NCBI GenBank assembly: GCA_964577235.1
Contig: CAZNYH010000078.1
Coordinates: 1 to 27,243 of the forward strand
DNA length: 27,243 nt
Source of the DNA: an uncultured archaeon
Lineage (GTDB): Archaea > Iainarchaeota > Iainarchaeia > JAADDC01 > CAZMYQ01
Direction of reading: 5' to 3'
The first letter of the stretch is position 1. Each line of letters opens with the position of its first letter. A program made the translations under genes and the position numbers. A model generated the notes under the pieces. The model had not been told where the DNA came from. It did no database searches and saw only the letters and a program-made list of their open reading frames with translations. Of this stretch, positions 1 to 4,213 are shown piece after piece.

Positions 1-3
1 CTA

Positions 4-876
4 ATGAAAGTCTGGTACAACGGAAAAATTGTTGAAGATTTGAAAATTCCAATAACAACTCATGCATTACACTATGGAACTTCTATTTTTGAAGGAATAC
101 GGTGTTATAAATTAGTTAATGGTAAATTAGGAATTTTCAGGCTAAGAGACCACATAAAAAGATTTTTTTATTCAGCAAAATGTTTGGAAATGAATTTAAA
201 ATTTTCTGAAGAGGAAATAATAAACGCATGTAAAAAAATAGTAATCGAAAATAATTTAGAAGATTGTTATATAAGACCAATAGCATTTTATAATTTTGGG
301 AAAATTGGTTTAAATGTTTTAAACGAAAATGTAGATGTTGCTATTTTTGCATTGCCTTTTCCTAAATATTTAAATGAAGAAGTGAAAGTTATAATATCCT
401 CTTATAAAAGAATTTCGCCTTATCAAACTTTTGTAAATGCTAAAATAGGAGGACATTATGTAAATTCAGTATTATCTACTATAGAAGCTAGGAAAAAAGG
501 GTTTGATGAAGCTTTATTACTTGATATGGAAGGATATATAGCAGAAGGCCCAGGTGAGAATATATTTTTCATAAGGGATAACGTTTTATATACTCCAACT
601 GAGCATTCGATTTTGCCAGGAATTACAAGAGATACTGTAATTAAATTTGCTAAAGATTTAGGATATGAGGTTGTGATTAGACCGATAAACGTATATGAAT
701 TAGAATATTTTGAAGAAGTTTTCTTTACAGGAACTGCTGCTGAAATTACCCCAATAAAACAAATAAATGACATTAAATATTCTACTAAAAAATCAAGAGA
801 AATAAGAGACTATTACTTAAAAATTGTGCGTGGAAAAGTTGAAAAATATTTAGATTGGATAGACGTATTATATTGA
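4..876 (+). CDS. ilvE: Branched-chain amino acid aminotransferase (PLP fold type IV)
   Basis: HALHYGTSIFEGIRCY, YIRP, NAKIGGHYVNS (PLP lysine), EGPGENIF, ILPGITRDTV and FFTGTAAEITPI motifs. Confidence 0.95.
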   Translation: MKVWYNGKIVEDLKIPITTHALHYGTSIFEGIRCYKLVNGKLGIFRLRDHIKRFFYSAKCLEMNLKFSEEEIINACKKIVIENNLEDCYIRPIAFYNFGKIGLNVLNENVDVAIFALPFPKYLNEEVKVIISSYKRISPYQTFVNAKIGGHYVNSVLSTIEARKKGFDEALLLDMEGYIAEGPGENIFFIRDNVLYTPTEHSILPGITRDTVIKFAKDLGYEVVIRPINVYELEYFEEVFFTGTAAEITPIKQINDIKYSTKKSREIRDYYLKIVRGKVEKYLDWIDVLY

Positions 877-3021
877 CAAAATGTTTCTTACGAACTCGTC
901 ACATCTGTTTTGAGCGATATTTTCAATATCTTGAATAGATTCTACATTCATGTTTCTCCAGGCTCTTTTGATAATTTGAGCAGTAAACCCAGCTCTTCCG
1001 CTCAAAACAGGAGGATAAACTCCACTTTTTAATCTTGAGTAAATATACTCTTCTTTTATAAATACTTCTTTTACCGTGTAAAAACTTAATTTGTAAAATG
1101 CTCGAATAGTACTTATATCTTGATATATTTCTCTTAAAGAGTTGTAATTTTTAGGTAATATGGTAAACTCTTCTTTCGCTCCTTTTTTTTCTTTTAAATC
1201 GAGAAGTATGTATCTATTCCAAAGTGTTGCCAGTGCATAGGCTGAATATATTAAATATTTAGCCAAGATTTTTTCTATTTCTTTTTTTCTTTTTTCTTCA
1301 TCAAGACCACTGGTATCAACTTTCATAATTTCTGATTGTGCAATCCCTACAGCATTTCTAACATTTAATATAAGAGATTTCAATAACAATCCTGCCCCAA
1401 TTTCTGAACTTGTAGGTACAATGGGAAATTCACTCACTTTTTCTGAAATACTTTCTACCCGTTTTGAAATAAGGTTGTTCCAAATTTCATCTTCACGTAT
1501 AGCTCCAGAAATTGTATATCGATCTATATTAAAAGTTGTTTGTTCTCCAAATATATAATTAAAGAAGCCCCTTGCATTATCACATATACTTATTAATTCA
1601 GGGTTTCCCTGTAATGCTTTTAATTCTGATTCACTTTTACCCATATAATCTAAAATTTTTCCTACAAATTCCACCCAAGCAAAAGCATCAAATATTTCCC
1701 TTACAGGAATCAACCCATCAACTAATAAAAAGTTAAACCTTCTCTTAAAAGCAGGGTCAACATCTCCTGAATAAGGATATTTATTTGTAGTTAGAAACAC
1801 AAAATAATTATATCTAAAATCTTCATCAATTAACTTTTCTTCAGTGATTTTACTAAGTTCAGATTTAAATGTTGCTACTGTAGATTCAAATGCTATTGCT
1901 CCCGCTTCTCCACTCATTTGTCTTCCTGTAACCAATAGTTCAGCCTCATCAAATAAAATAATGTAAGGAACTTTTGCTTTTGCAGGTCCTTTTCCTTCAT
2001 TAAGTGTCCTTCTTAAAATTTTTTCAGATTCTCCTACATATTTAGACATGATATCAGGTAAAGATAATTCTTTTAGAGTTCCACCTATTTTATGATGCAA
2101 AATTCTAGCCATTGATGTTTTACCTGAACCTGGTGGTCCCCAGACCAAAAACAATCCATAATTTTCAGGAGATCCTGCTTTTGGTAGTTTAAAAACTATT
2201 GCATTTATAATTTCATCAACTTTTGGTGGATGGAAAATGTATAAATCATCTAAAAGTCGCTTATAAGCATCTCGATAAGAATCTTTTATATATTTTGGAA
2301 AGTTCAACAAATATCTGTCGATTAAAATTATTTGAGAATAAGGAGTAGATTTTGACATTAACAATAATCTTCCACCTAATGCTAAAAATCTTTCAATTTC
2401 TTTGACTATAAATTGCTCGTTAAATTTTAAATAATTATAAATATCCTGAATCATTTTAGGACTAAACTTAATTCCTTCATGTTCAAATTCTTCTAGACTA
2501 TTGCATATAGACTTTATATTATCTTCAACTTCCTTTAATATTTCATCGTGTTTTGGAATATCTATAGTTCCATTTACTTCAAATTTGGTTTTCATTCGCA
2601 TATATTGGCTTTTAAAAGTGTTATACGTTATACTATATTTTAAAAAAGTTACAAATAGTTCATAAGTTCTTGGAGTATTAATTAAACTTTTACTTAGAGT
2701 GTCTAACAATACATAAACAGCATAAGCATCTAAAGTAATGTCTAAACTAGCACATTTAAATGATAAATGTTTATAAACATCTTCTCTTCTATATTCTGGT
2801 GCAAAGTTAGGAGCAAATCGTCTTATGCTCAAAACTTTTCCCTTATCAAACACATTACCAATATCTCCTGTATTGTTTTCTACTATAGTTGAAGCTGGCT
2901 TTCGATATAAATCTCCTAAAATACCATGAGATAAAATATATATTCTATTTCCAATCTCATTTATTCTGTTAAAAACATTTAAATAAACTTTTATGGGCAT
3001 TGGTCTATTGTTAAATTCCAT
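868..3021 (-). CDS. AAA+ ATPase of the classic AAA clade with long unrecognised N- and C-terminal regions (717 aa)
   Basis: Walker A GPPGSGKT, pore loop IMSKYVGESEK, Walker B IILFDE, sensor 1 TTN, second region of homology DPAFKRRF; flanking regions not recognised. Confidence 0.85.
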   Translation of the reverse strand: MEFNNRPMPIKVYLNVFNRINEIGNRIYILSHGILGDLYRKPASTIVENNTGDIGNVFDKGKVLSIRRFAPNFAPEYRREDVYKHLSFKCASLDITLDAYAVYVLLDTLSKSLINTPRTYELFVTFLKYSITYNTFKSQYMRMKTKFEVNGTIDIPKHDEILKEVEDNIKSICNSLEEFEHEGIKFSPKMIQDIYNYLKFNEQFIVKEIERFLALGGRLLLMSKSTPYSQIILIDRYLLNFPKYIKDSYRDAYKRLLDDLYIFHPPKVDEIINAIVFKLPKAGSPENYGLFLVWGPPGSGKTSMARILHHKIGGTLKELSLPDIMSKYVGESEKILRRTLNEGKGPAKAKVPYIILFDEAELLVTGRQMSGEAGAIAFESTVATFKSELSKITEEKLIDEDFRYNYFVFLTTNKYPYSGDVDPAFKRRFNFLLVDGLIPVREIFDAFAWVEFVGKILDYMGKSESELKALQGNPELISICDNARGFFNYIFGEQTTFNIDRYTISGAIREDEIWNNLISKRVESISEKVSEFPIVPTSSEIGAGLLLKSLILNVRNAVGIAQSEIMKVDTSGLDEEKRKKEIEKILAKYLIYSAYALATLWNRYILLDLKEKKGAKEEFTILPKNYNSLREIYQDISTIRAFYKLSFYTVKEVFIKEEYIYSRLKSGVYPPVLSGRAGFTAQIIKRAWRNMNVESIQDIENIAQNRCDEFVRNILSI

Positions 3022-3028
3022 TAAATAA

Positions 3029-3241
3029 CTATTTTATTATTTTTACTTCAATGTTAAATCTTTTACCTGTTTCTAGTACTTCGTTTTTTATGAATTCAGG
3101 AATATTTCCTTTTACTATGATTATCCCAAATCTGGCTAAAATTATTTCACCACCTGCGTTTTTTAAAGTTTCCAAAATAGTATTAAATGCTTCTCTTTCA
3201 TTTTGAGCGTTAAGTTTTCCTCCAAACACAGAGCACAACAT
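3029..3241 (-). CDS. Small hypothetical protein (70 aa) with a predicted beta-alpha-beta-beta-alpha-beta pattern
   Basis: TAATG overlap with the rpoN stop, fills the gap to the AAA gene (7 nt spacer), typical residue composition. Confidence 0.7.
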   Translation of the reverse strand: MLCSVFGGKLNAQNEREAFNTILETLKNAGGEIILARFGIIIVKGNIPEFIKNEVLETGKRFNIEVKIIK

Positions 3242-3459
3242 TATATAAATTTAGCTGAAGGTTTTTCTATCTTGTGATATTTAATTACGTCTTTCATGAT
3301 TTCAACTCCAGATATAAACATTCTTCTACAACAGTATCTTTTTATTTTTAACCTTTTAAATGCTTCTTTTGGCCCAACTTTTTTGGATAACTCTAAATAT
3401 TTTTTCCATAAATGTCCAATAGGTTTTCCACATGTAAAACATCTTACAGGAAATAACAT
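3241..3459 (-). CDS. rpoN: DNA-directed RNA polymerase subunit N (Rpo10)
   Basis: MLFPVRCFTCGK and RYCCRRM zinc-binding signature. Confidence 0.97.
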   Translation of the reverse strand: MLFPVRCFTCGKPIGHLWKKYLELSKKVGPKEAFKRLKIKRYCCRRMFISGVEIMKDVIKYHKIEKPSAKFI

Positions 3460-3520
3460 AAAATTTTATATCAAAATTTATTTATAACCAAGAATTATAA
3501 ATATTAATAGAGGTGTTATT
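3460..3520. promoter_or_regulatory. Divergent promoter region for rpoN and rps17, with the rps17 SD
   Basis: 61-bp AT-rich spacer with TATA-like boxes on both strands (TTTATTTA/TTTATAAC 3477-3488 on +); GAGGTG at 3510-3515. Exact boxes are uncertain. Confidence 0.5.
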
Positions 3521-3814
3521 ATGATATGCAACGATGTACATTGCCCATATCATGGACATATTAAGGTTAGAGGGAAATTATTTGTGGGAAAAGTAATTTC
3601 AATAAAAAGGCATAAAACAGTAACAGTGCTAGTAGAACATATCAAAAAAATTCCCAAATATGAAAGATATGCCAGATACACTTCAAAAATTCATGCTCAC
3701 TTACCTCCATGTATAAAAGTAGAAGAAGGAGATATTGTGGAAATAGGAGAAACTAGAAAAATATCAAAAACCAAATCATTTGTAGTTTTAAGAGTACTAA
3801 AAAGAGGTGATTAA
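3521..3814 (+). CDS. rps17: 30S ribosomal protein uS17
   Basis: CPYHGHIKVRG, KYERY, HAHLPPCI, GETRKISKTKSFVV. Confidence 0.97.
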   Translation: MICNDVHCPYHGHIKVRGKLFVGKVISIKRHKTVTVLVEHIKKIPKYERYARYTSKIHAHLPPCIKVEEGDIVEIGETRKISKTKSFVVLRVLKRGD

Positions 3815-4213
3815 ATGAAAGCAATTTCAGCATCACCTGTAAAAGCAATTCAAGTTGGAACTATATTGGATTGCGCAGATAATAGCGGAGCTAGAAAGTT
3901 AAAAGTTATTGGAGTTTTGAGATACAAAGGAAGAAAAAGAAGACATCCTTGCGCTGGAGTTGCAGATGTAGTAATATGTTCAGTAATTGAAGGATCTCCA
4001 GATATTAGAAAGAAAAAAGTAAAAGCCATAATAATTAGACAAAAAAAAGAATATAGAAGAAAAGATGGAACTAGAATTTGTTTTGAAGACAATGCTGCAA
4101 TAGTTGTTAACGACAACTTTGATCCTATTGCATCTAAAATAAAAGGACCTGTTGCAAGAGAAGTTATTGAAAGATTTCCAAGTGTTGGAAGAAGAGCTTC
4201 GATGGTGGTTTAA
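3815..4213 (+). CDS. rpl14: 50S ribosomal protein uL14
   Basis: CADNSGARKL, RQKKEYRRKDG, FEDNAAIVV, KGPVARE; SD GAGGTGA at 3804-3810. Confidence 0.98.
   Translation: MKAISASPVKAIQVGTILDCADNSGARKLKVIGVLRYKGRKRRHPCAGVADVVICSVIEGSPDIRKKKVKAIIIRQKKEYRRKDGTRICFEDNAAIVVNDNFDPIASKIKGPVAREVIERFPSVGRRASMVV

Follow-up and report, generated by a model that had tools for sequence, protein, structure and literature searches.

What kind of ATPase is encoded at one end of contig CAZNYH010000078.1 (assembly GCA_964577235.1), and is its function related to that of the RNA polymerase subunit gene, rpoN, that lies upstream of it? The contig (27 kb; C78) was analyzed over its full 27,243 nucleotides (nt), which are here termed the window. 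It belongs to a 609-kb archaeal genome bin that is about 80% complete and has a G+C content of 29%. Genome sizes are 0.4–1.3 Mb across the GTDB class of the source archaeon, and from these the organism is taken to be of the DPANN type. The open reading frame (ORF) in question is at window positions 868–3021 on the minus strand. It is complete, begins with ATG and encodes an orphan single-module AAA+ ATPase of 717 amino acids (P0001), followed by a stop codon. The protein is colinear over its full length with one orthologue (P0002). The base composition of the gene is that of the remaining contig; thus, going by composition, it is a resident gene. On balance, the protein is probably an active, ring-forming and substrate-threading remodeller of the catalytically competent classic type, an accessory and lineage-specific paralogue whose position next to rpoN is incidental.

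The AAA core

A Pfam scan of the 717 aa protein shows PF00004 alone above threshold, at residues 292–431 (E-value = 2.3e-18, 67 bits against a cut-off of 21.2). The AAA alpha/beta core encompasses residues 286–436 (window 1714–2166, minus strand), as delimited by PF00004, hhalign, AlphaFold2 and Foldseek. When the pair of orthologues is compared by hhalign with an alignment of 154 AAA domains, the probability is 99.8% over residues 291–436, and the match ends exactly at the second region of homology (SRH).

The motifs of the core, all on the minus strand, are complete. Walker A (GPPGSGKT, from reading of the sequence) is at residues 295–302 (window 2116–2139). Pore loop 1 is K327-Y328-V329-G330 (window 2032–2043), and Walker B, IILFDE, is at residues 354–359 (window 1945–1962). 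The sensor-1 residue is Asn413, inside FLTTN (window 1783–1785), and the arginine fingers are R427 and R428, inside DPAFKRRF (window 1738–1743). A pairwise alignment shows that the Walker A, Walker B, sensor-1 and arginine finger residues, i.e. all catalytic residues, are invariant in the orthologue; the pore loop is KYVG in one protein and KYHG in the other. This motif set, together with the aromatic-hydrophobic-Gly type of pore loop 1, is that of the classic clade of AAA+ proteins (PF00004). The original prediction, made from the sequence of the window, had described one intact AAA module with these motifs, and this is confirmed.

The same prediction considered the region after Walker B to be atypical, which is also correct. 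Most family and PDB profile alignments end near residues 365–400, and Walker B is separated from sensor 1 by about 10 more residues than is usual. The SRH is of an “RRF” type without the usual RPGR. A motif of the MDG type for inter-subunit signalling is usual between Walker B and sensor 1 in classic AAA proteins; it was not seen in this segment of the 717 aa protein.

Classic AAA+ proteins are established as ring-forming, threading enzymes with KY-type pore loops. Here the motifs for ATPase activity and of the pore loop are all strictly conserved against a fast-changing background, and it is this that argues for a remodeller. A non-threading nucleotide switch or scaffold, i.e. a pseudo-unfoldase whose ATP site regulates binding and not translocation, would agree with the longer Walker B–sensor 1 segment, with the missing MDG-type motif and with a lid that is unrecognisable (see below). 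However, the Walker B Glu, the sensor-1 Asn, both arginine fingers and the pore-loop Tyr are kept across a divergence of 61%, which is not expected of a pseudo-enzyme, and we regard a switch as very unlikely.

Distribution and rate of change

Among 5.8 billion protein clusters, a word-indexed search yields a single full-length relative, the orthologue P0002 from a hydrothermal-vent metagenome (730 aa, 97% coverage). The overall identity of the two proteins is 37%–39%. The remaining cluster matches span 11%–39% of the query, and this portion is the AAA core. A HMMER search of 1.84 billion representatives with a two-sequence profile shows, in the best 150 of 11,724 matches, only P0001 and P0002 at full length; the other matches listed are multi-AAA proteins that align through the core. 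Among 41 related genomes, the orthologue is present only in that of a sister species of the same genus (G001, E-value = 2e-145), and genomes of the same order and the same class show Cdc48- or PAN-type core matches only. When one genome of each GTDB species was scanned by pattern, the contig of this sister species was the only match, and a scan of JGI metagenomes found no member. Thus, as far as public data show, the family is limited to two species in one genus of small-genome (about 0.5–0.6 Mb) hydrothermal-vent archaea. A lineage-specific AAA+ protein of the classic type had been anticipated, and the full-length matches bear this out.

The protein changes rapidly. Between the two species the protein methyltransferase PCMT is 72% identical, Alba is 61%, a signal-peptidase-like protein is 51% and the AAA protein is 37%. 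Within the AAA protein the core is 58% identical, the N-terminal region 36%–42% and the C-terminal region 21%–38%.

The same gene was found in an independent subsurface metagenome from another study, where it differs by three synonymous substitutions and a single conservative one (I655T). This pattern points to purifying selection at the population level. The sequencing run concerned (X2) contains the same organism at a depth of about 3–5x and is nearly identical over window positions 396–3866; the source organism is thus not confined to the source sample.

The gene also contains a purine-rich low-complexity stretch that encodes mostly Lys and Glu (window 1269–1305, residues ~573–584, EEKRKKEIEK). 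This stretch draws contigs of 31–245 nt from unrelated organisms, in DNA and metatranscriptome runs alike, and so creates a false depth spike that could be mistaken for expression. The only RNA contigs that match the AAA gene match this stretch and derive from other organisms.

N- and C-terminal regions

The core is flanked by about 285 N-terminal and about 280 C-terminal residues which match no Pfam, NCBIfam or PDB sequence profile. That these regions could not be assigned to Cdc48 N-domains or to PAN, MIT or FtsH domains had been stated at the outset and stands. Pieces 1–288 and 429–717 match nothing in Pfam even at E ≤ 10, and a search of the 5.8 billion clusters with just the N-terminal piece had no hit at E ≤ 10.

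Structural models were made with AlphaFold2. With the two-sequence alignment, the mean predicted local distance difference test (pLDDT) value is 36. It rises to 61 with a composite alignment to which 33 AAA cores were added, trimmed from 45 residues before Walker A to 160 after it, so that depth was gained in the core only. In this model the core (residues 290–435) has pLDDT values of 79–95. Foldseek had been proposed as a way to identify the flanks; against PDB and BFVD it matches the core alone (p97 D1, Rix7, Vps4 and viral AAA proteins), with a query-normalised template modelling score of about 0.2.

The N-terminal region, residues 1–285 (window 2167–3021, minus strand), is predicted to be all-helical. 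Residues 117–225 (window 2347–2673, minus strand) form a helical bundle with a small beta-hairpin at 180–185 in the model, with pLDDT values of 80–93 in a part covered by two sequences only. This segment has no separate match by Foldseek in PDB or BFVD. It is a candidate substrate- or adaptor-binding subdomain.

The C-terminal region, residues 437–717 (window 871–1713, minus strand), is also predicted to be all-helical, with about 11 helices, at low confidence (pLDDT 31–72). Its best-conserved block is at residues 536–612 and contains the patterns AG.L..SL..N...AVG and KY..YSAYAL..LW.R. An expanded lid with two lid-like segments had been proposed for this part of the protein, and is not confirmed. 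A comparison of residues 420–717 with 142 canonical lids by hhalign gives a probability of 0.3%, and PF17862 (AAA_lid_3, the four-helix lid that follows the core) is not detected by Pfam in the protein or in its C-terminal piece. A divergent lid may be present nevertheless, and residues 437–717 must hold whatever acts as one.

Relationship to known AAA proteins

The NCBIfam matches of the 717 aa protein are partial and far below threshold. These are CdvC (NF041006, 45 bits against 650), CDC48 (TIGR01243, 42 against 802), PAN (TIGR01242, 34 against 500) and IteA (21 against 510).

A maximum likelihood tree (LG+C20) was calculated from 164 columns of 47 cores. The set comprises Cdc48 D1 and D2, Rix7, FtsH, bacterial single-module proteins and four references. 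The references were compared with PDB entries, yeast Vps4 by alignment (100% identical to 6bmf) and Methanocaldococcus jannaschii PAN (3h4m), human spastin (5z6q) and human ATAD1 (8vxt) by full-length bit score only. In the best tree the family groups with bacterial “DPAF-RRF” proteins (P0101, P0106, P0109, P0111 and P0113) with support of 98/94, and the grouping holds with or without the Vps4, spastin, ATAD1 and PAN references. These bacterial neighbours are uncharacterised and score highest, below threshold, against the IetA/IteA models. The genomic contexts of two of them are heterogeneous and uninformative. In the approximately unbiased (AU) test none of the alternative unions is rejected, i.e. 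with Vps4/spastin/ATAD1 (p = 0.06), with Cdc48 D1 (p = 0.17) or with D2 and PAN (p = 0.15). Long-branch attraction is likely, since the family has a stem of 1.86 substitutions per site and long branches occur in the IetA-like rows as well. The core sequences thus appear to favour IetA-like relatives in the best tree, and the AU test leaves placements with Cdc48 D1, with D2/PAN and with the meiotic group standing. The phylogenetic analysis that had been proposed as a check accordingly gave a best tree without settling the position of the family.

The tree raises the possibility that the gene is a horizontally acquired bacterial ATPase of the IetA type, which would serve in conflict, in defence or in some other accessory function and take no part in housekeeping proteostasis. 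The family shares with these bacterial proteins, its sister group by maximum likelihood, a single module, a long unmatched N-terminal region and the SRH pattern TTN...D-P-A-F-x-R-R-F. Its narrow distribution and fast evolution also fit an accessory gene. However, the AAA module of the IetA-like proteins is C-terminal and lacks a tail of 280 residues, and their N-termini are unrelated to that of the 717 aa protein (hhalign comparison of the flanks with the N-termini of the tree neighbours shows no similarity). The base composition of the gene is native, the IteA score is below those of CdvC and CDC48, and the PADLOC score is 26 bits. No IetS protease is a neighbour as in IetAS, and neither a protease nor any other partner gene adjoins the AAA gene in either species. 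With long-branch attraction likely and other placements not rejected by the AU test, we consider such an acquisition unlikely.

Between Walker A and Walker B, the AAA modules that most resemble the protein in both sequence and fold are those of Cdc48/VAT/p97, together with Rix7/NVL and Afg2/SPATA5. Cdc48-type modules and the 717 aa protein have in common a K-Y-x-G pore loop followed by an ESEK motif, and the overall lengths are similar. But the protein has one AAA module and not two, no double-psi-barrel N-domain (PF02359 and PF02933 are absent), no RPGR-type SRH and no detectable canonical lid, and canonical Cdc48-like genes coexist with the family member in the sister genome. It therefore does not belong to Cdc48/VAT. 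A decayed Cdc48 paralogue, in which one AAA module is left and the N-domain and the other module have eroded, could explain the chain length of 717 aa and the position of Walker A at 295, which resemble an N-D1-D2 arrangement. The D1 part of the CDC48 model aligns with residues 291–367, a Cdc48 affinity is not rejected by the AU test, and such lineages evolve fast, as the values for PCMT and the AAA protein illustrate. Against this, a search by hhalign for a remnant AAA fold gives a probability of 0.7% for residues 1–285 and of 16% for residues 420–717, the latter merely the edge of the SRH, as compared with 99.8% for the core. Since neither flank resembles an AAA domain or a lid, a decayed second module is unlikely; both flanks are moreover predicted to be all-helical, without beta-sheet. 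An origin by decay of Cdc48 is thus quite unlikely in our estimate.

CdvC/Vps4, spastin and ATAD1/Msp1 also have a single module and a D-x-A-x-x-R-R-F finger motif without Pro-Gly, and of the family models that of CdvC aligns over the greatest length (residues 291–430). This alignment is confined to the core. The MIT and Vps4_C domains are absent according to Pfam and the CdvC score is far below its cut-off, so that the protein does not qualify as a CdvC or Vps4. The best tree does not join the family to this group, although the AU test does not reject the union. No true CdvC was found among the 41 related genomes.

PAN and other proteasomal ATPases are similar in having a classic-clade core and a single module, and in being archaeal. 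The coiled-coil/OB N-domain of PAN is unmatched, and the C-termini, LSI here and DLL in the orthologue, lack the hydrophobic-Tyr-X (HbYX) tail for proteasome docking. A role as proteasome activator was ruled out on the absence of this tail. Membership in FtsH does not apply, as transmembrane anchors are absent and the M41 peptidase (PF01434) is unmatched. The PADLOC TRIP13 model reaches 36 bits through the AAA core only and there is no adjoining partner gene, although no search was aimed at HORMA proteins.

No transmembrane segment or signal peptide was found in the 717 aa protein (maximum Kyte-Doolittle score 1.35). It is predicted to be soluble, and a membrane or secreted protein was ruled out, given that it has no transmembrane segment. 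A role in host interaction had been suggested as an alternative; nothing supports it, in view of the lack of these same features.

Gene neighbourhood

The gene rpoN (Rpo10) is at window positions 3241–3459 on the minus strand (PF01194, E-value = 4.8e-24; NF003089 above cut-off). It is followed by ORF70 (3029–3241, minus strand), an orphan without a family match, and then by the AAA gene. All three genes share this strand. The first two overlap by 1 nt (TAATG) at position 3241, and 7 nt separate ORF70 from the start of the AAA gene; the tight spacing is thus real. A class-IV aminotransferase gene (4–876, plus strand) converges with the AAA gene. The 3′ ends of these two genes overlap by 9 nt (868–876), which leaves no space for separate terminators.

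In the sister species (locus L001), the AAA orthologue at positions 1960–4152 is 22 nt after a signal-peptidase-like gene at 1257–1937 (226 aa, VPTPSMVPTI). The two genes are on the same strand and the orthologue converges on the PCMT methyltransferase gene. The contig, of 5.3–5.6 kb, also contains Alba and three unknown ORFs, and rpoN is absent from it. In the source genome the homologues of the signal-peptidase-like gene (51% identical, contig C24) and of PCMT are on contigs other than that of the AAA gene. The pairing of the signal-peptidase-like gene with the AAA gene is therefore not conserved either. ORF70 has no homologue in 20 relatives, the sister species included. Extensive rearrangement of gene order is a feature of these genomes.

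The original prediction was of a lineage-specific unfoldase that is co-expressed with rpoN and a small partner, ORF70, perhaps for assembly or recycling of RNA polymerase. The shared strand, the 1-nt overlap and the 7-nt gap do fit one transcript in the source genome. However, the only other species with the AAA gene lacks this linkage, an outcome named in advance as refuting the proposal, and ORF70 is an orphan in genomes with little constancy of gene order. The lineage specificity and the unfoldase-like motifs thus stand, while a functional link to rpoN or to ORF70 does not. The inference of a role with RNA polymerase is unsupported and we hold it to be highly improbable; the adjacency of the AAA gene and rpoN in the source genome is incidental.

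Other ATPases in the two genomes

The sister species has, besides the family member, two canonical tandem-AAA Cdc48-like genes and a further AAA gene. In the source bin, contig C37 encodes at positions 1–421 (minus frame) a 139 aa C-terminal fragment, ...DPALLRPGRF...TEGYTGADIEAICRRAG..., which is of the canonical classic AAA type (Cdc48/PAN). This sole canonical fragment lies at the edge of its contig, so that the seeming absence of Cdc48 and PAN from the bin reflects an assembly gap and not a loss. The canonical copies in the sister genome and the fragment found here show that the 717 aa protein is an extra paralogue. Replacement of Cdc48 by this protein was ruled out, as canonical copies exist.

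The source genome also encodes Orc1/Cdc6. Three archaeal-ATPase paralogues of 275–465 aa (FVGR..EL..L...GRRRIGKT...) are on contigs C66, C4 and C2, two of them with a C-terminal extension, and a 560 aa McrB-like AAA_5 protein is on contig C53. A reduced genome of roughly 0.6 Mb thus keeps several accessory NTPases.

Possible function

By analogy with classic AAA+ proteins, the single-module protein would form a ring in which the energy of ATP hydrolysis serves, by way of the conserved Lys-Tyr pore loop, to draw a protein substrate through the central pore or to remodel it. Selection of the substrate or of an adaptor may fall to the helical N-terminal domain, and the helical C-terminal region may supply a very divergent lid and an extension.

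Several observations weigh against this reading as a threading remodeller. The conservation is that of two sequences, which is weak evidence. The SRH half of the core, when searched alone in PDB, finds no AAA protein and is strongly divergent. The Foldseek core matches and the model confidence over the core are not independent results, since known AAA cores had been placed in the AlphaFold alignment. The lid functions in nucleotide sensing and ring contacts, and as it is unrecognisable here, oligomeric state and ATPase competence are inferred. Lastly, the RNA runs and metatranscriptome contigs of the source study contain no words of the AAA gene.

A tentative extension of the remodeller reading, which we regard as possible but not likely, is that the two proteins form a new family of classic-type AAA+ unfoldases whose helical N- and C-terminal domains are new folds. 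Such a family would have evolved in one vent-dwelling, host-dependent genus for a lineage-specific task, e.g. on a symbiosis-related or surface-assembly substrate. In the sister species, the gene upstream of the orthologue and on its strand is the signal-peptidase-like one.

Reduced genomes of this kind commonly contain orphan paralogues that diverge fast. With two sequences and no conserved neighbour, the protein is not tied to any process, and the practical value of the analysis is negative in that a connection with RNA polymerase, however attractive, is not borne out. The architecture, known from two sequences, is new, and the kind of AAA+ protein is well known. The targets that accessory domains recognise are what define AAA+ unfoldases. 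A new module for substrate recognition could therefore come to light in the two large unmatched flanks of this protein, and with it perhaps a process specific to a lineage of the poorly understood ultra-small archaea.

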